A DNA stretch of 6,407 bases from a virus (Duplodnaviria; Heunggongvirae; Uroviricota; Caudoviricetes), in the IMG/VR virus record IMGVR_UViG_648276668_000001, positions 1 to 6,407 of that record. One strand, written 5' to 3'. Numbering within the stretch: position 1 is the stretch's first letter; the number at the start of each line of letters is the position of its first letter. The notes under the pieces were generated by a model. That model did not search any database. It was not told the origin of the DNA and saw nothing but the letters and a program-made list of their open reading frames with translations. Below, in pieces: positions 3-6,407 of the stretch. Position numbers and translations under genes: made by a program.

Positions 3-2108
3 GGCTGTACCAGCCGGGGGCAGGCACACCGCGCCGGGCTGTGGCTGATTAAAACGGAACTGCTGGAGACGCAGACCGTGGATTTCAGCGTGGGTGCTGA
101 AGGGCTTCGCCATGTACCGGGCGATGTCATTGAAATCTGCGATGATGACTATGCCGGTATCAGCACCGGTGGTCGCGTGCTGGCGGTGAACAGCCAGACC
201 CGGACGCTGACGCTCGACCGTGAAATCACGCTGCCATCCTCCGGCACCACGCTGATAAGCCTGGTTGACGGTGAGGGTAATCCGGTCAGCGTGGAGGTCC
301 AGTCCGTCACCGACGGCGTGAAGGTGAAAGTGAGCCGTGTTCCTGACGGCGTTGCTGAATACAGCGTGTGGGGGCTGAAGTTGCCGACGTTGCGCCAGCG
401 CCTGTTCCGCTGCGTGAGTATCCGTGAGAACGACGACGGCACGTATGCCATCACTGCCGTGCAGCATGTACCGGAGAAAGAGGCCATCGTGGATAACGGG
501 GCGCACTTTGACGGCGACCAGAGCGGCACGGTGAATGGTGTCACGCCGCCAGCGGTGCAGCACCTGACTGCCGAAGTCACCGCAGACAGCGGGGAATATC
601 AGGTACTGGCCCGCTGGGACACGCCGAAGGTGGTGAAGGGCGTGAGCTTCCTGCTTCGCCTGACCGTGGCAGCGGACGACGGCAGTGAGCGGCTGGTCAG
701 CACGGCCCGGACGACGGAAACCACATACCGCTTCACGCAACTGGCGCTGGGGCGTTACACGCTGACAGTCCGGGCGGTAAATGCGTGGGGGCAGCAGGGC
801 GATCCGGCATCGGTATCGTTCCGGATTGCGGCACCGGCAGCGCCTGTCACTATTGAACTGATACCAGGGTATTTTCAGATAACAGCGGTCCCGAAACTGG
901 CTGTATATGACCCGACGGTGCAGTTTGAGTTCTGGTTCTCGGAAAAGCGGATTACCGATATCAGGCAGGTTGAAACCAGCGCGCGTTATCTTGGTACGGC
1001 GCTGTACTGGATAGCCGCCAGTAGCAATATTAAGCCGGGTTATGATTATTACTTTTATATCCGCAGCGTGAACACTGTTGGTAAATCGGCATTTGTGGAG
1101 GCCGTCGGTCGGGCGAGCGATGATGCGGAAGGTTATCTGAATTTTTATAAAGGGTTGATCAATAAAACGCATCTCGGCAAGGAACTGCTGGAAAACTTTG
1201 AGCTGACGGAAGATAACGCCAGCAAACTGGAGGAGTTTTCGAAAGAGTGGAAGGACGCTAACGATAAATGGAATGCCATGTGGGGCGTCAAAATTGAGCA
1301 GACCAAAGACGGCAAACATTATGTCGCGGGTATTGGCCTCAGCATGGAGGATACGGAGGAAGGCAAACTGAGCCAGTTCCTGGTTGCCGCTAACCGTATC
1401 GCGTTTATTGACCCGGCAAACGGGAATGAAACGCCGATGTTTGTGGCGCAGGGCAACCAGATATTCATGAACGAAGTGTTCCTGAAGTATCTGACGGCTC
1501 CCACCATTACCAGCGGCGGTAATCCTCCGGCATTTTCCCTGACACCGGACGGGCGGCTGACGGCGAGAAATGCTGATATCAGCGGTAACGTGAATGCGAA
1601 CTCCGGGACGCTCAATAATGTCACGGTAAATGAAAACTGTACGATTAAGGGCATGCTGGAGGCGAACCAGGTCAGAGGTGACTTCGTTAAAACTGTATCC
1701 AAATCATTCCCGAAAAAGGCTGGTACGTGGGGTAACACGGAAACACCAAACGGGACGGTTACAGTCACCATTTACGATGATCATAACTTTGACCGCCAAA
1801 TCATTATTCCGCCCATTATTTTTAACGGTGTGGCGTATGACGATCCGGGGAGCGGTAATAACCCGGGAGGTACGCGATACACGGGTTATGGTTTTGAAGT
1901 TCGCAAAAATGGCGTATTAATCGCATCCAGAGAAACTAAAGGAGCCATTCCCGGTAGTTACAGTGCGGTTATTGATATGCCGAGTGGTGGTGGTAACGTC
2001 ACTCTGGAGTTTAAGATTTTCCAGAAAGGCAATCAGGGCGCAGGTAACATCACAGACTGTACGGTGATTGTGACCAAAAAAGCTGCTTCCGGTATCAGTA
2101 TCCGTTGA
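3..2108 (+). CDS. J: Host-specificity / tail-tip protein (lambda J-like), C-terminal ~700 codons; 5'-partial, gene continues upstream of the window
   Basis: The reading frame is open from position 3 with no stop until TGA at 2106-2108. The provided ORF (78..2108) starts at an internal GTG, but translation of bases 3-77 gives [26 protein letters not shown], continuous with it. From memory, the [51 protein letters not shown] stretch matches lambda J. Two fibronectin-III-like segments are present (e.g. ...[32 protein letters not shown]...), followed by a distal C-terminal domain that in J-type proteins carries receptor specificity. Confidence 0.9.
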
Positions 2109-2168: not shown

Positions 2169-4541
2169 ATGGCAGTACAGATTTCAGGTGTGCTGAAAGA
2201 TGGTGCGGGAAAACCAATACAGAACTGCACTATTCAACTGAAGGCAAAGCGTAACAGCACCACGGTACTGGTGAACACGGTGGCCTCTGAAAATCCGGAT
2301 GAAGCCGGGCGTTACAGCATGGATGTTGAGTATGGCCAGTACAGCGTTATCCTGCTGGTTGAAGGTTTTCCGCCTTCACATGCCGGAACCATTACCGTCT
2401 ATGAAGGTTCCAGACCAGGTACGCTGAATGATTTTCTCGGTGCCATGACGGAAGATGATGTCATGCCGGAGGCATTGCGTCGTTTTGAGGCAATGGTGGA
2501 AGAAGCGGCACGCAACGCTGAAGCCGCCTTTCAGAGCGCAGCGGCGGCAAAGAAATCCGAAGCTGCTGCGGCATCATCGAAGAACGCGGCGAAAAGCTCA
2601 GAAACGAATGCAGCTAACAGCGCACAGGCGGCAGCGGCCTCACAGACTGCATCGGCAAACTCCGCGACAGCAGCCCAAAAATCAGAAGCCAACGCGAAAA
2701 ATAGCGAAACAGCCGCAAAGACGAGTGAAACCAACGCGAAGTCCAGCCAGACGGCAGCGAAAACCAGCGAAACGAATGCCAAAGTCAGTGAAACTGCAGC
2801 GAAAAACAGCCAGGCTGCAGCAGCTGAAAGCGAGAGCGCAGCAGCCGGTTCTGCGACTTCAGCAGCTGGATCAGCAACTGCTGCGGCTAACAGCCAGAAA
2901 GCTGCGAAGGCGAGCGAAACTAACGCAAAGTCCAGCCAGACGGCAGCGAAGACCAGCGAAACGAATGCCAAAGCCAGCGAAACTGCGGCGAAAAGCAGTC
3001 AGGATGCAGCAGCCGAAAGCGAGAGTGCTGCAGCTGGTTCTGCAAGCGCGGCGGCTGCTTCTGCCACTGCATCAGCTAACAGTCAAAAAGCAGCAAAAAC
3101 CAGTGAAACCAACGCAAAGGTGAGCGAAACAGCGGCTGCGAACTCAGCGAAAGCATCGGCAGCAAGCCAGACGGCAGCTAAAGCAAGCGAAGATGCAGCC
3201 AGAGAGTACGCAAGCCAGGCTGCGGAGCCGTATAAATATGTCTTACAGCCGCTGCCTGATGTGTGGATACCATTTAACGATTCGCTGGATATGATTACGG
3301 GCTTTTCGCCGTCATATAAAAAGATTGTTATTGGTGATGATGAAATAACGATGCCTGGCGACAAGGTTGTTAAGTTTAAACGCGCATCGAAAGCAACCTA
3401 TATTAATAAATCTGGTGTGCTGACAGAGGCTGCCATTGACGAGCCACGGTTTGAACGTGATGGCCTGCTTATTGAGGGGCAAAGAACGAACTACATGCTC
3501 AATTCGGAAAGCCCTGCCAGTTGGGGGCGATCGTCAAATATGGATGTGCCCGAAACCGGGACGGATAGTTTTGGTTTTACCTATGGAAAGTTTGTCTGTA
3601 ACGATTCTCTGATTGGGCAAACCTCAGCCATTAATATGGCATCAATTGCTGCAACAAAGTCAGTTGATGTCTCAGGCGATAATAAACACGTGACAACCTC
3701 ATGTCGTTTTAAAACAGAACTGCAGGTAAGGTTGCGTATCCGGTTTGATAAATATGACGGTAGCGCAACAACTTTTCTTGGTGATGCGTATATTGATACA
3801 CAAACGCTTGAAATTAATATGACAGGCGGTGCTGCCTCAAGGATTACAGCGAGAGTCAGAAAGGACGAAGCTACCGGATGGATTTTTGCAGAGGCAACAA
3901 TTCAGGCAATTGATGGGGAGTTAAAAATAGGTTCTCAGATACAGTATTCTCCTAAGCAGGGCGGGGCAACCGTATCTGGTGACTATATTTATCTGGCCAC
4001 CCCACAAGTAGAAAATGGGCCTTGTGTATCATCTTTTATTATATCAGGAACGACGGCGGCGACCCGCGCAAGCGATATAGTTACAGTTCCAATTAAGAAT
4101 AATCTTTATAATCTTCCTTTTACGGTTCTTTGTGAGGTACATAAGAACTGGTATAAAACGCCAAATGCAGCGCCGCGTGTTTTTGACACCGGCGGTCATC
4201 AAACCGGAGCGGCTATTATTCTTGGCTTCGGTTCTTCAGCAGATTACGACGGATTTCCTTATTGCGATATTGGAGGAGCTAACAGACGGGTAAACGAAAA
4301 CGCATCGCTTGAAAAAATGGTTATGGGGATGCGTGTAAAGTCAGATCAGTCTACGTGCTCAGCAAGTAACGGGCGTATATCCAGCGAAACAAAAACCACA
4401 TGGTCCTGTATTCAGAACACCGCAATTATCCGTATTGGAGGCCAGACTACAGCCGGGTTACGTCATTTATTTGGTCATGTCAGGAATTTCAGAATATGGC
4501 ACAAGGCATTGACTGATGCTCAGGTGGGGGAGTCAATCTAA
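2169..4541 (+). CDS. stf: Side tail fibre protein (Stf-like), mosaic: lambda-Stf-like N-terminus, repetitive Ala-rich shaft, distal domain ending in a LamG/concanavalin-like motif
   Basis: The provided ORF starts at GTG 2163, but ATG 2169 is preferred: GGAG at 2160-2163 sits 5 nt upstream, and the product then begins MAVQISGVLKDGAGKPIQNCTIQLKAKRNSTTVLVNTVASENPDEAGRYSMDVEYGQYSVILLVEGFPPSHAGTITVYEGS, which I recognise from memory as the lambda Stf N-terminus. Residues ~120-350 are A/S/T/K/E/N-rich tandem repeats. The distal ~440 residues are different in character and lower in GC, ending ...IIRIGGQTTAGLRHLFGHVRNFRIWHKALTDAQV, which resembles the C-terminal strand motif of LamG_3 / concanavalin-like lectin domains. 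Stop TAA at 4539-4541. Confidence 0.85.
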   Translation: MAVQISGVLKDGAGKPIQNCTIQLKAKRNSTTVLVNTVASENPDEAGRYSMDVEYGQYSVILLVEGFPPSHAGTITVYEGSRPGTLNDFLGAMTEDDVMPEALRRFEAMVEEAARNAEAAFQSAAAAKKSEAAAASSKNAAKSSETNAANSAQAAAASQTASANSATAAQKSEANAKNSETAAKTSETNAKSSQTAAKTSETNAKVSETAAKNSQAAAAESESAAAGSATSAAGSATAAANSQKAAKASETNAKSSQTAAKTSETNAKASETAAKSSQDAAAESESAAAGSASAAAASATASANSQKAAKTSETNAKVSETAAANSAKASAASQTAAKASEDAAREYASQAAEPYKYVLQPLPDVWIPFNDSLDMITGFSPSYKKIVIGDDEITMPGDKVVKFKRASKATYINKSGVLTEAAIDEPRFERDGLLIEGQRTNYMLNSESPASWGRSSNMDVPETGTDSFGFTYGKFVCNDSLIGQTSAINMASIAATKSVDVSGDNKHVTTSCRFKTELQVRLRIRFDKYDGSATTFLGDAYIDTQTLEINMTGGAASRITARVRKDEATGWIFAEATIQAIDGELKIGSQIQYSPKQGGATVSGDYIYLATPQVENGPCVSSFIISGTTAATRASDIVTVPIKNNLYNLPFTVLCEVHKNWYKTPNAAPRVFDTGGHQTGAAIILGFGSSADYDGFPYCDIGGANRRVNENASLEKMVMGMRVKSDQSTCSASNGRISSETKTTWSCIQNTAIIRIGGQTTAGLRHLFGHVRNFRIWHKALTDAQVGESI
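2724..3135 (+). repeat. In-frame tandem repeat inside stf: two ~189-bp (63-aa) copies plus a partial third, each built from ~42-bp (14-aa) sub-repeats
   Basis: Direct comparison: 2733-2921 (aacgcgaagtccagccagacggcagcgaaaaccagcgaaacgaatgccaaagtcagtgaaactgcagcg...) recurs at 2922-3110 (aacgcaaagtccagccagacggcagcgaagaccagcgaaacgaatgccaaagccagcgaaactgcggcg...) with few substitutions. At protein level TNAKSSQTAAKTSETNAKVSETAAKNSQAAAAESESAAAGSA... is followed by TNAKSSQTAAKTSETNAKASETAAKSSQDAAAESESAAAGSA.... Boundaries are approximate. Confidence 0.8.
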
Positions 4542-4822
4542 TGAAAGATTTAACACTCAAATTTGAAGACAGGGCCGACTTTTCGGCCTTTATGGAGAGT
4601 ATTGGCTATTATGATGACGAGTCGATGCAGGATGATATTCTTATCGACGTGATAGGTAACGCGTACAAAGAAACCGGAGAACTGACTGAAGATGGCGAAC
4701 CGGTATGTGTTAAGGAAGACGGATATTTTGTAAACGTGCGCATCATTAATGATTCGCAAATATCGTCATTATTCGATGAGTACGTGGTTGCTGTTGAGCA
4801 TCAACTTCGTGGCTGGATGTGA
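4541..4822 (+). CDS. Hypothetical 93-aa highly acidic protein, translationally coupled to stf; function unknown (candidate fibre chaperone/adaptor or DNA-mimic-like anti-defence protein)
   Basis: The ATG at 4541-4543 overlaps the stf stop (TAATG). A GGGGGAG Shine-Dalgarno-like stretch (4526-4532) sits 8 nt upstream. The product has 22 Asp+Glu against 7 Lys+Arg by my count (net charge about -15). I recognise no family motif. Confidence 0.6.
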   Translation: MKDLTLKFEDRADFSAFMESIGYYDDESMQDDILIDVIGNAYKETGELTEDGEPVCVKEDGYFVNVRIINDSQISSLFDEYVVAVEHQLRGWM

Positions 4823-4831
4823 GGAAGAAAA

Positions 4832-5872
4832 ATGGCTACATCGACAGTAATTCCTGATGACATCAAAACGCTAAAATCCGACGTTAGCAAATTAAAAAAC
4901 GATCAAGGAAGCTACGCAACAAAATTATATGTAGACAGCAAAGATGAAATCGTTGGTGACTGGTCTGCTTCATGGTATCAGCAGGTATTGCCAACTAGCG
5001 GAGCTATATTTGGGAGAAAACTCCGCTCAACTCACAGGACGGCAGGTGTTGAGGATGCGTATTGCGAACTATACCTCAAAAAATGGATAGACAGTCCAGG
5101 TAACGCAATGGCGCGCCTTAACCTGAACGATAACGGGACAAACATTTGCTGGGACTTTACCAACCTTTATGGCGGTACGATGATTTTTCCCGGTGACAGC
5201 GGATACCTCAAAATGGGTAACTGCCTTATGTCATACAGCAAGCGTGGAAGTAACGCGCTTATTAAATTTGATTACACCGACACATTACAGATCAAATATG
5301 CCAATCATGGGTCAACCATGACATTAAACACACAGGGAACCGCTTATGCTGGTGTTACTGCTCAATTGTGGGGCAACTCCAGCCGTCCTGTTGTTTATGA
5401 AGTCGGTGTTGATGGTGGCGCTTATATGTTCTATGCGCAGAAAAATACCGATAACACCTATATGTTAAGCGTTAATGGTGCATGTCATGCCACAGCATTT
5501 AACCAGCATTCCGACCGGGATCTGAAAGACAACATTCAGGTGATCGATAATGCAACCGACCGCATCCGTAAAATGAACGGCTATACATACACGCTTAAAG
5601 AAAACGGTATGCCCTATGCTGGTGTCATTGCACAGGAAGCTCTGGAAGCAATCCCAGAAGTTGTAGGTTCCGCAATGAAATATCAGGACGGTGCAAGCGG
5701 ATCGGAAGGTGAAGAAGGTGAACGTTATTACACAGTAGATTATTCTGGTGTTACTGGCTTGCTTGTTCAGGTAGCCAGAGAGTCAGACGACAGAATAACA
5801 GCACTGGAAGAAGAAAATGCAGAATTAAAACAAAGATTATCTGCAATTGAGGCGACGCTTGCGTCTAAATAA
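4832..5872 (+). CDS. Short tail-fibre/tailspike-like protein with a C-terminal intramolecular chaperone (peptidase S74-type) autoproteolytic domain
   Basis: GAGGAAG lies 5 nt upstream of ATG 4832. The C-terminal ~120 residues, HSDRDLKDNIQVIDNATDRIRKMNGYTYTLKENGMPYAGVIAQEALEAIPEVV...YYTVDYSGVTGLLVQVARESDDRITALEEENAELKQRLSAIEATL, carry the hallmarks of the self-cleaving chaperone domain seen in endosialidase tailspikes and T5 L-shaped fibre: SD..LK.NI at the predicted cleavage site (Ser227, codon 5510-5512), GVIAQE...PEVV, and a terminal coiled-coil-like segment. The N-terminal ~226 residues would be the mature product. GC is low. Confidence 0.8.
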   Translation: MATSTVIPDDIKTLKSDVSKLKNDQGSYATKLYVDSKDEIVGDWSASWYQQVLPTSGAIFGRKLRSTHRTAGVEDAYCELYLKKWIDSPGNAMARLNLNDNGTNICWDFTNLYGGTMIFPGDSGYLKMGNCLMSYSKRGSNALIKFDYTDTLQIKYANHGSTMTLNTQGTAYAGVTAQLWGNSSRPVVYEVGVDGGAYMFYAQKNTDNTYMLSVNGACHATAFNQHSDRDLKDNIQVIDNATDRIRKMNGYTYTLKENGMPYAGVIAQEALEAIPEVVGSAMKYQDGASGSEGEEGERYYTVDYSGVTGLLVQVARESDDRITALEEENAELKQRLSAIEATLASK

Positions 5873-5878
5873 TATTAA

Positions 5879-5898
5879 GGGGCCGAGCGCCCCGTTTT
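5879..5898 (+). terminator. Probable intrinsic terminator after the S74-domain gene
   Basis: GGGGC (5879-5883) / GCCCC (5889-5893) stem with a 5-nt loop, followed by GTTTTATT. The stem is short, so this is a weak-to-moderate call. Confidence 0.45.
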
Positions 5899-5914
5899 AT
5901 TGGGTAGGATGAAA

Positions 5915-6208
5915 ATGGATATAACACCTTTCCTTCATGCACTTTGTGCTGTGGCTGCGCAGGTACTGGTTGGTCTTTTTACCGGAAACTGGGCTTACGG
6001 GGCGATAGCCGGTTGTACGTTCTTCATTGCTCGTGAACATACCCAGGCAGAATATCGCTGGATTGAAATGTTCGGGCATGGCAAGCGTATGAATATGCCG
6101 TGGTGGGGTGGTTTTGATCCGCGCGTGTGGGATGTGGCAAGCCTGATGGATTTTTCTGTGCCGGTGGTGGCGTGTCTGCTGGTCTGGCTGTTGGTTAATC
6201 GTGGGTGA
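5915..6208 (+). CDS. Small hypothetical integral membrane protein (~98 aa, three predicted transmembrane helices)
   Basis: The provided ORF (5900..6208) starts at TTG. ATG 5915 is preferred because AGGA at 5906-5909 sits 5 nt upstream; ATG 5909 is an alternative. Three hydrophobic segments: ITPFLHALCAVAAQVLVGLFTG, WAYGAIAGCTFFIA and VASLMDFSVPVVACLLVWLLV. No lipobox and no recognisable catalytic motif. Stop TGA at 6206-6208. Confidence 0.55.
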   Translation: MDITPFLHALCAVAAQVLVGLFTGNWAYGAIAGCTFFIAREHTQAEYRWIEMFGHGKRMNMPWWGGFDPRVWDVASLMDFSVPVVACLLVWLLVNRG

Positions 6209-6218
6209 AAAAAGGTGA

Positions 6219-6347
6219 GCTGTATATGCAACGGAGGAAGAAACCTCGCTGCTGGAAGCCTGGAAAAAGTATCGGGTGTTGCTGAACCGTGTTGATACAT
6301 CAACTGCACCTGATATTGAGTGGCCTACGAACCCTGTCAGGGAGTAA
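6219..6347 (+). pseudogene. tfa: Remnant of a tail-fibre assembly gene (tfa): conserved C-terminal ~40 codons only, no start codon
   Basis: The frame opens directly after an in-frame TGA (6216-6218) and reads [42 protein letters not shown], ending at TAA 6345-6347. From memory, [30 protein letters not shown] is the conserved C-terminal motif of lambda-type Tfa proteins. There is no ATG/GTG/TTG in frame and no N-terminal ~150 codons. It is absent from the ORF track because it is short and start-less. Confidence 0.7.
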
Positions 6348-6362
6348 TCATTGGGGATTATG

Positions 6363-6396
6363 CCGCAGAAACGTTGTATGCAATAACGTTCTGCGG
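6363..6396. repeat. Imperfect inverted repeat / hairpin (12 bp stem with one bulge, 9-nt loop) just downstream of the tfa remnant
   Basis: CCGCAGAAACGTT (6363-6375), loop GTATGCAAT, then AACGTTCTGCGG (6385-6396). No T-run follows on either strand, so it is not a classical intrinsic terminator. It may be a protein-binding site or part of an element continuing beyond the window. Confidence 0.4.
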
Positions 6397-6407
6397 TTGG
6401 CTGATGC

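Follow-up and report, generated by a model that had tools for sequence, protein, structure and literature searches.

Side tail fibres of lambdoid phages

The side tail fibre (Stf) of lambda, encoded in Ur-lambda by orf-401/orf-314 and belonging to family PF08400, is translated from a gene that follows gene J. In Ur-lambda Stf, residues 1-91 have been defined as the collar domain, and residues 102-393 form a proximal trimeric coiled coil (PMC12617516). The distal part of the lambda fibre is gp37-like, occurs together with Tfa, and binds OmpC. Tail fibre genes have been described as mosaics with shared sequence motifs (Haggard-Ljungquist 1992; Sandmeier 1992, 1994, in the form in which they are cited in PMC3945230). 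Relaxed homologous recombination by phage Rad52-like recombinases has been reported, and exchange between diverged short homologies is a documented mechanism in lambda stf regions, the minimal pairing lengths being quoted as 23-27 nt for Red-beta and 31-34 nt for RecA (PMC3945230).

Here we analyzed a 189-bp tandem repeat in a virus-derived stretch of 6,407 nucleotides, in the following called the window. The source of the repeat is the stf gene of a lambdoid E. coli prophage. The left part of the window encodes the C-terminal two thirds of the central tail fibre or host specificity protein J (78-2108, plus strand), the ORF of which is open at the left end of the window. This ORF contains the Pfam domains Ig_J, Ig_J_second, Phage_Tail_Tip and Ig_GpJ_C, and its counterpart in E. 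coli HYM1 carries the RefSeq label 'host specificity protein J'. It ends at 2108 and is followed by the stf-type gene (2169-4541, plus strand; 790 aa from the ATG at 2169), which thus has the position downstream of J that is expected of a lambdoid tail module and is found also in lambda. The program-made list of ORFs had placed the start at a GTG at 2163. Other features differ from lambda. A lom gene is not present between J and stf in the window, and stf is followed by a gene for a 93-aa protein and then by a gene for a second fibre protein with an S74 chaperone (4832-5872), while tfa is represented only by a truncated pseudogene remnant 3' of stf.

The assignment of the gene was based on several matches. 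The PF08400 domain phage_tail_N was found at residues 3-133 (E=1.6e-66), phrog_1419 covered the full length, and BLASTP aligned 286 aa with lambda orf-401 at 61% identity (E=8e-88). The RefSeq CDS WP_000290532.1 has identical limits. The nearest named relatives are the Stf genes of Tritos (a prophage of E. coli LF82), HannyBb, PhiR63_1 and 2G7b, which share 96.6-97.7% DNA identity over the full length, have the same architecture of two and a bit repeat units, and deviate by point differences only. The highest value, 97.7%, is that of Tritos, the record of which carries the remark 'lambda phage stf protein homolog'.

Collar domain and heptad rod

Residues 1-94 (2169-2450, plus strand) constitute the N-terminal collar domain, which anchors the fibre to the tail. 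They match the 94-aa PDB chain 9e7m_Ta / 9mgh ('Tail fiber protein') with E=1.8e-49, and beta strands were predicted at residues 3-77 in an AF2 model. The domain is homologous to lambda Stf 1-91, and the identity to lambda amounts to about 85% over the first 120 residues. After a short linker it is followed, also as in lambda, by a long Ala/Ser-rich proximal rod, which aligns with the lambda rod and shares the motifs SETNA and AAKTSE with it. A gp37-like distal tip and the assembly protein Tfa were absent, and a GTA_spike_fiber domain and the tfa pseudogene were found instead. Tip and Tfa are traits of lambda's own Stf and not of the wider PF08400 family. The matches to PF08400, phrog_1419, the collar chain and lambda orf-401 thus identify a fibre gene with the repeat in its rod, in agreement with an earlier note on this DNA, which had placed the repeat in a fibre shaft.

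The rod is an unbroken array of 32 heptads (residues 128-351; 2550-3221, plus strand) with the consensus [K/A]-x-S-[E/Q/A]-T-[A/N]-A. Serine occupies position 3 in 31 of the 32 heptads, and alanine occupies position 7 in 29. Two near-invariant positions that are spaced 4 and 3 residues apart throughout 32 consecutive heptads represent the periodicity of a coiled coil; both residues are small and not hydrophobic, which is atypical of an a/d core. In the AF2 monomer model of residues 1-400, which had a low mean pLDDT of 58.5, helices were predicted at residues 95-225 and 234-352 (pLDDT 60-77), with a break at the Gly-containing heptads 226-233 that is probably an artefact. By homology with lambda Stf, in which residues 102-393 are the equivalent segment, the rod would be a coiled coil of three alpha helices. 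A search for a solved structure of this part retrieved only the deposited 94-residue collar chain of Ur-lambda.

Anatomy of the 189-bp repeat

Within the rod, nine heptads (63 codons) form unit 1 of the repeat (2700-2888, plus strand; NSETAAKTSETNAKSSQTAAKTSETNAKVSETAAKNSQAAAAESESAAAGSATSAAGSATAAA), and the next nine form unit 2 (2889-3077, plus strand), which is 82% identical to unit 1 on the DNA level and 84% on the protein level. A partial unit 3 comprises heptads 26-28 (3078-3137, plus strand; NSQKAAKTSETNAKVSETAA); its end is approximate, and the heptads beyond it are unrelated. The likeness of unit 3 to units 1 and 2 is confined to the first 42-63 nt from 3078, at 76-81% identity, the value being 79-81% for the first 42 nt and about 60% by 84 nt. 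Tandem Repeats Finder reported an array with a period of 189 at 2703-3119 (2.2 copies, 81% matches, 0 indels, score 575), and together with the codon-phase units this confirmed the location at 2724-3135 and the partial third copy that had been claimed before. The earlier note had also described sub-repeats of 14 codons. These are present as a nested period of 42 nt (2727-2810 and 2891-2992), but the basic unit is 7 codons, and a nested period of 21 nt was found as well. When the region 2450-3250 was compared with itself, the off-diagonal at an offset of 189 had the highest identity, as had been predicted, and all remaining peaks lay at multiples of 21.

The 189-bp signal is not a mere consequence of the heptad periodicity. 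The best tandem identity in the heptad array, 83%, occurred at the nine-heptad period, whereas 2000 shuffles of the 32 heptad blocks yielded a mean of 60% and a maximum of 74%, so that none of the 2000 reached the observed identity. The two units are nevertheless not near-identical, as had been thought, although the tandem arrangement, the period of 63 codons and the preserved frame all held. Differences were found in 29 of the 63 codons (19 synonymous and 10 non-synonymous), and the longest exact runs shared by the two units are 23 and 22 nt. The rod of lambda does not have the 189-bp duplication. A literature search for an earlier description of this repeat retrieved none, and the papers on the LF82 prophage Tritos do not contain the term 'tail fiber'.

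Each unit falls into two parts that differ in composition, a first half of five Lys/Glu-rich heptads and a second half of four Ala/Gly/Ser heptads. Both copies, and the relatives as well, have retained this arrangement. Its conservation might suggest that each stretch of 63 residues has a function of its own, for instance in docking the 93-aa protein or the second fibre protein onto the rod, and that the copy number sets the stoichiometry and not the length. The same downstream genes indeed travel together with the distal module of the fibre. However, they co-vary with that module and not with the rod, and PhiR40_1 and GN4738, which are devoid of any Ala/Gly/Ser halves, still keep the same kind of downstream genes. 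In addition, the unit itself did not match any domain family in Pfam or NCBIfam. A docking function is therefore regarded as very unlikely. The 189-bp repeat is a real, ordinary and occasionally length-variable feature of lambda-type side tail fibres, and new biology is not implied.

Length alleles among relatives

The number of units was compared among relatives, including sampled records from about 970 complete E. coli genomes with the region. Nearly all sampled records had the two-unit length, which appears to be the predominant allele in these genomes, and the locus is thus not hypervariable. Shorter alleles differed by whole heptads. Phage IdasGreatGrand lacks one complete unit (nine heptads), and so do no fewer than three complete E. 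coli genomes (AVS0655, CB209 and MSB1_4I). One heptad is lacking in strain 203740, in which this was confirmed, and seven records show the span of that allele. Four heptads are lacking in strain EFF60, and 15 in PhiR40_1, PhiR49_2, GN4738 and 3385. A gain of nine heptads, resulting in three units, was found in one draft IMG/VR contig, L014. When this allele was used as the query, a three-unit allele was not retrieved from complete E. coli genomes; the best 25 records were all of the two-unit type and were aligned in two pieces. Protein variants that are not multiples of a heptad (-4, -12, -30 and -41 aa) were each found in one draft contig only and may reflect errors of assembly.

The region occurs at up to 13 places per genome, and most protein hits were partial proteins at contig ends. 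One candidate for an exchange of modules, H83/L012, annotated with a 'head spike fiber domain', was rejected, because it proved to be the remnant of a deletion, in which the rod is fused to a terminase fragment.

The many places per genome and the partial proteins at contig ends, together with the origin of the three-unit allele and of the non-heptad variants from single draft contigs, would fit an interpretation in which all length variants are artefacts produced when repetitive DNA is assembled, the actual gene having two units throughout. Yet the one-unit allele and the alleles lacking 1, 4 and 15 heptads are present in complete bacterial or phage genomes, and several of them recur in independent strains (the -1 span in seven records and the -9 allele in three genomes). 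Furthermore, the collapse of a repeat by an assembler is not expected to leave a three-unit product with a cleanly reciprocal hybrid unit. We thus consider it extremely improbable that the length alleles as a whole are artefacts.

Such hybrids were found in both directions. The single unit of IdasGreatGrand has a copy-1-like 5' end and a copy-2-like 3' end, whereas the middle unit of L014 has a copy-2-like 5' end and a copy-1-like 3' end. The opposite polarities accompanying the loss and the gain of one unit are the products expected of unequal exchange between units 1 and 2. Across 128 two-unit alleles, the identity between the units ranged from 64% to 89%, with a median of 84%. Orthologous copies are 93-95% alike, compared to 82-84% for paralogous copies, which indicates that the duplication is old and has not been homogenised.

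The earlier note had called the repeats prone to in-frame length change. The one-, two- and three-unit alleles and their hybrid make-up are in line with this idea, but the wording is too strong for a locus with two units in nearly all sampled records. Taken further, it would mean that the repeat is a contingency locus, at which slipped-strand events frequently change the copy number within one lineage and thereby switch fibre length for bet-hedging or host range. Length variants that are in frame and quantised in heptads are compatible with such a switch, and both gain and loss of one unit were observed. Slipped-strand loci are recognized by short, near-perfect units and by copy number differences among very close relatives, and neither was found here. 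The unit is 189 bp long and not a short tract, the units of the 128 alleles were never near-perfect copies of one another, orthologous units are closer than paralogous ones, and all five genomes with at least 99.5% identity have the two-unit length, as do nearly all sampled records from the approximately 970 complete genomes. There is hence hardly any likelihood that a contingency locus is involved.

Origin of the repeat and of its length alleles

It is likely that the repeat is an old tandem duplication of nine heptads in a coiled-coil Stf rod, the unit number of which is occasionally changed by unequal exchange or slippage. A 63-residue segment of the Ala/Ser-rich rod would have been duplicated in tandem long ago. 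Because the 32 heptads follow one another without interruption over the whole rod, insertions or deletions of whole heptads preserve the reading frame and keep the coiled coil in register. From time to time, the two diverged units would undergo unequal homologous exchange or replication slippage, which would lead to the loss or gain of one unit, and smaller events between other similar heptads would lead to the loss of 1, 4 or 15 heptads. The result would be a shorter or longer proximal rod, with an unaltered collar domain and an unaltered distal, receptor-side module. In a rod with the geometry of a canonical helix (63 x ~0.15 nm), one unit would correspond to a length of about 9 nm, and such a change might influence adsorption.

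The similarity of the units bears on how readily they could recombine. In other alleles, the units usually share exact runs of 29-68 nt, which are at or above the minimal pairing lengths quoted for Red-beta and RecA (PMC3945230). The units of the window are 82% identical with exact runs of 23 nt at most, and exchange in this allele should therefore be inefficient; the units of Tritos share an exact run of 47 nt. The process would differ from that of the known mosaic tail fibre genes in that the partners include two units of one gene, so that the length is changed and not the specificity, and in that an invertase site is not involved within the window.

A selected role of rod length as a ruler, by which the reach of the distal module from the tail tip would be matched to the thickness of the O-antigen or capsule of the host, is rather unlikely. 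If it were true, an association of rod length with the type of distal module or with host serotype would be expected, instead of neutral drift.

Distal module and its junctions

The transition from the rod to the distal module is marked by a conserved PLPDVW motif (3249-3266, plus strand), of which P361, L362 and P363 were invariant in the alignment. The similarity to three unrelated phages, ESCO3, VogelGryff and tunus, sets in at 3204-3246. The distal, receptor-side module (3267-4541, plus strand) contains an NCBIfam GTA_spike_fiber domain at residues 434-634 (E=2.4e-13), in contrast to the OmpC-binding distal part of lambda, and is exchangeable among phages. As in other mosaic tail fibre genes, it is common to unrelated siphophages, the version of Nonagvirus vB_EcoS_ESCO3 being 97% identical and that of Drexlerviridae tunus about 83%, and the junctions lie at conserved stretches.

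The repeats had also been proposed to be substrates for the exchange of distal modules. This applies to a smaller class of 22 loci, in which similarity breaks inside the repeat array or where it ends, but in most cases (61 loci) the junction to another distal module, marked by clustered ends of high-identity segments, is situated 3' of the rod at about 3450-3510. In alleles of the PhiR47_1 type, the rod end and the distal module are exchanged for different ones at partial unit 3 (3078 to about 3137). The low-complexity heptad DNA may thus occasionally serve as a joining point for a different rod end or distal module.

The alleles reveal which in-frame changes of the Stf rod are tolerated in nature, namely whole heptads from -15 to +9, and where natural junctions to other distal modules are located, namely at the end of the repeat array, at the PLPDVW motif and at about 3450-3510. 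This is useful when Stf chimeras are built for phage-derived delivery particles (PMC11338833), although the practical value is modest.

Nested alternative-frame ORFs

Two long ORFs are nested in the rod region, one of 222 aa in the +1 frame (2455-3123, plus strand) and one of 146 aa in antisense orientation (2531-2971, minus strand). Neither is a gene. Both translations are of low complexity, the former being rich in R/Q/K/P and the latter in A/F/L/V, and neither matched NCBIfam. In comparison with Tritos, the +1 frame showed 5 synonymous and 23 non-synonymous differences, versus 19 and 13 in the stf frame. For the antisense ORF the corresponding numbers, 15 and 13 versus 19 and 13, were not discriminating, and its rejection as a shadow of the Ala/Ser-rich rod is based on its composition, its nested position and the lack of homologues.

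The earlier note had correctly regarded these ORFs as spurious but had attributed them to the repeats. Both start before the 189-bp repeat, and their source is the scarcity of stops that results from the codon composition of all 32 heptads, and not the duplication itself. The +1 frame contains one stop codon in the rod, compared to nine in an equal length of the distal part. The region gives rise to shadow ORFs, which have entered public annotation, and breaks short-read assemblies. An orf206b analogous to the antisense ORF is annotated in the lambda record, and a PGAP hypothetical protein is annotated in strain EFF60.

The stf gene contains a duplication of nine heptads

Judged from its sequence, the window comes from a lambdoid E. 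coli prophage, of which it represents the tail-fibre end. Strains HYM1 and TUM10008 carry a prophage with 99.6% identity to it, and the identity with a prophage in LF82 is 97%; in HYM1, the prophage end adjoins sitABCD. An ORF at 78-2108 encodes the C-terminal part of gpJ, and the ORF at 2169-4541 is stf, which matched PF08400, the prophage tail fibre N-terminal domain (E=1.6e-66), and phrog_1419 end to end. This repeat-bearing gene has 97.7% identity to its counterpart in phage Tritos, recorded as a "lambda phage stf protein homolog". Residues 1-94 match the Ur-lambda collar chain (9e7m/9mgh, E=1.8e-49), the sole solved piece of Stf, and the protein shares 61% identity with lambda orf-401 across 286 residues, a stretch that includes the Ala/Ser-rich part. 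Tests for the collar domain, the gene position and the rod were all positive, and the gene belongs to the PF08400 Stf family. It differs from lambda's own Stf in having another distal module and no intact tfa.

Residues 128-351 (nt 2550-3221) form a rod of 32 uninterrupted heptads with the consensus [K/A]-x-S-[E/Q/A]-T-[A/N]-A, with Ser at position 3 in 31 and Ala at position 7 in 29 of them. An AlphaFold2 monomer of low confidence (mean pLDDT 58.5) modelled residues 95-225 and 234-352 as helical, with a break at the Gly-containing heptads of unit 1. Cryo-EM/ET of Ur-lambda has divided lambda Stf into a collar domain (1-91), a linker (92-101) and a proximal trimeric coiled coil (102-393) (PMC12617516). 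Together, this map and the heptad layout identify the repeat as a duplication of nine heptads inside the proximal rod (heptads 8-16 and 17-25, with a partial third copy in 26-28). The duplication is absent from lambda itself.

The earlier note had claimed near-identical, in-frame 189-bp repeats in the fibre shaft. Tandem Repeats Finder detected a period-189 array at 2703-3119 (2.2 copies, 81% matches, zero indels, score 575), within which periods of 42 and 21 nt were nested. The 42-nt period corresponds to the 14-codon sub-repeats that had been described, but the elementary period is seven codons. A repeat finder paired 2644-2832 with 2833-3021 at 77% and found many copies spaced by 21 nt. Self-comparison of 2450-3250, the dot-plot check that had been proposed, gave 189 as the top offset, and the remaining peaks were all multiples of 21. 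At offset 189, local identity was about 90% in 2715-2800 and 57-76% from about 2820 to the unit end. Aligned in codon phase, unit 1 (2700-2888) and unit 2 (2889-3077) had identities of 82% (DNA) and 84% (protein), the longest exact runs were 23 and 22 nt, and 29 of 63 codons differed (19 synonymously, 10 non-synonymously), so that "near-identical" was an overstatement. Likeness of the third unit (from 3078) to the other two was confined to its first 42-63 nt. When the 32 heptad-sized blocks of the rod were permuted 2000 times, tandem identity averaged 60% and reached at most 74%, and not one permutation equalled the observed 83%. This result and the codon-phase anatomy establish that the repeat is real, in frame and located where it had been placed.

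Rod lengths of relatives

The same rod architecture occurs in phages Tritos, ev207, PhiR49_1 and PhiR46_1. IdasGreatGrand lacks exactly one 63-residue unit, and the rods of PhiR40_1 and PhiR49_2 are 15 heptads short. In PhiR47_1, unit 2 is one heptad shorter, and within the partial third unit the sequence gives way to another rod end and another distal module. Divergence comes earlier in Lambda_4C10 and phage 21. The best 120 protein clusters yielded 59 distinct rods in 11 length classes. Several variants deviate from whole heptads; these were seen in single draft contigs and may be errors. A pattern scan found two units 189 nt apart in at least 119 IMG/VR contigs and three units in one draft contig (L014). 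The suggested comparison of copy number thus yielded rods of one, two and three units.

At least 80% of the region is present in about 970 complete E. coli genomes, and nearly all of the matches listed have the two-unit length. The confirmed exceptions are all whole-heptad changes: minus nine heptads in AVS0655, CB209 and MSB1_4I, minus one in strain 203740 (its span of 878 nt recurs in six further records), minus four in EFF60, and minus 15 in GN4738 and 3385. With L014 as the query, the three-unit allele was absent among the top-ranked complete E. coli genome matches.

Most of the best protein hits to the 5' half of stf (2169-3300) were "partial" proteins ending at contig edges. Complete E. 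coli genomes have this half at a median of 2 places and a maximum of 13, which makes it a frequent breakpoint in short-read assemblies.

Changes in copy number

IdasGreatGrand's only unit is a hybrid that resembles unit 1 in its 5' part and unit 2 in its 3' part. The middle unit of L014 has the opposite order, unit 2 in the 5' part and unit 1 in the 3' part. In each hybrid, the changeover falls in the centre of the unit, where the two copies are most alike. Misalignment of units 1 and 2, followed by unequal exchange or slippage, would generate these as two reciprocal products. Each unit gained or lost would alter the rod by about 9 nm without affecting the collar or the distal module. Heptad rods, internal duplications, mosaic fibres and relaxed recombination are all already established; a literature search found no paper on this particular stf rod duplication. 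Our analysis adds an allele series quantised in heptads and hybrid units of reciprocal make-up.

Orthologous units of the window and Tritos are 93-95% identical, whereas paralogous units are 82-84% identical. Across 128 two-unit alleles, units 1 and 2 are 64-89% identical (median 84%). These sequence comparisons indicate an old duplication in which homogenisation has not taken place and changes in copy number are rare. With nearly all listed matches at the two-unit length, the array can hardly be called "prone to" length change, as had been proposed.

The longest exact runs between units of the 128 alleles are mostly 29-68 nt, around the minimal pairing lengths of Red-beta (23-27 nt) and RecA (31-34 nt), and recombination between stf regions about 12% diverged is a known activity of phage Rad52-like recombinases (PMC3945230). 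Based on both points, a phage recombinase would be the likeliest agent of unit exchange. The repeat was also considered as a contingency locus, a designation that was rejected because, in the alleles and genomes compared, it lacks the defining features of such a locus.

Alternative-frame ORFs

Two ORFs are nested within stf, at 2455-3123 (plus strand, +1 frame) and at 2531-2971 (minus strand). The earlier note had regarded the alternative-frame ORFs as spurious and as created by the 189-bp repeats. Both have low-complexity translations without a family match, but both start upstream of the 189-bp units, and their cause is therefore the codon make-up of the entire heptad array (GCN, AGC, GAA, AAA, AAC). 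Between the window and Tritos, synonymous to non-synonymous differences were 19:13 in the stf frame and 5:23 in the +1 frame. The +1 frame contains one stop in the rod versus nine in a distal stretch of equal length.

The lambda reference has an annotated antisense ORF, orf206b, inside the Ala/Ser-rich stretch of stf orf-401 (L134 1648-2268; NC_001416 20147-20767, minus strand). In EFF60, PGAP annotated an antisense "hypothetical protein", WP_416373223.1, at the corresponding place in the rod (L137 1932-2288). Both look like shadow ORFs of the same kind as 2531-2971.

Junctions and the distal module

The distal module, taken from the PLPDVW motif (3249-3266) to 4541, is 97% identical in Nonagvirus vB_EcoS_ESCO3 (Queuovirinae). 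In two phages of the Drexlerviridae, tunus and tinuso, the identity is about 83%. The N-terminal anchor differs in each of these phages, and each carries an Ala/Ser heptad rod of its own (loci compared: L010 1700-3796 and L011 1868-3841). The tunus record carries a repeat_region annotation in the rod. Behind a different N-terminal domain, the nine-heptad unit and distal module also occur on the 106-kb plasmid NZ_OZ369442.1 (L013 3360-5264), where RefSeq lists this gene as a pseudogene.

To map junctions, the window was compared with 139 related loci, and the ends of the high-identity matches were recorded. They clustered in three places: at the stf start in 93 loci, roughly 200-250 nt inside the distal module (about 3450-3510) in 61, and within unit 2 (about 3030-3060) in 22 of the PhiR47_1 type. 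The repeats, which had been proposed as sites for exchange of distal modules, do coincide with the 22 ends, but the 61 lie downstream. Together with module sharing and the plasmid fusion, the clusters identify the repeat array as one junction zone among several and not the main one. In the decayed prophage of E. coli E200086 (L012 3322-5195), a terminase small-subunit fragment is fused straight to the stf rod at about window position 2553, and the entire intervening head and tail region is deleted.

Neighbouring genes

The J-stf gap (2109-2168) comprises 60 nt without lom, as in Tritos, ev207 and Lambda_4C10; lom lies between J and stf in lambda, IdasGreatGrand, PhiR40_1, PhiR46_1 and several complete genomes. 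Downstream of stf (4541-6407) follow genes for a 93-aa protein (phrog_1361), a second fibre protein of 346 aa with a C-terminal Peptidase_S74 intramolecular chaperone domain, a protein of about 100 aa (phrog_1443), and a truncated tail fibre assembly pseudogene. The first three accompany the distal stf module in unrelated phages, e.g. ESCO3. The second fibre gene contains a weak direct repeat of three copies (75-85%) at 5345-5364, 5615-5634 and 5741-5760, with spacings of 270 and 126 nt.
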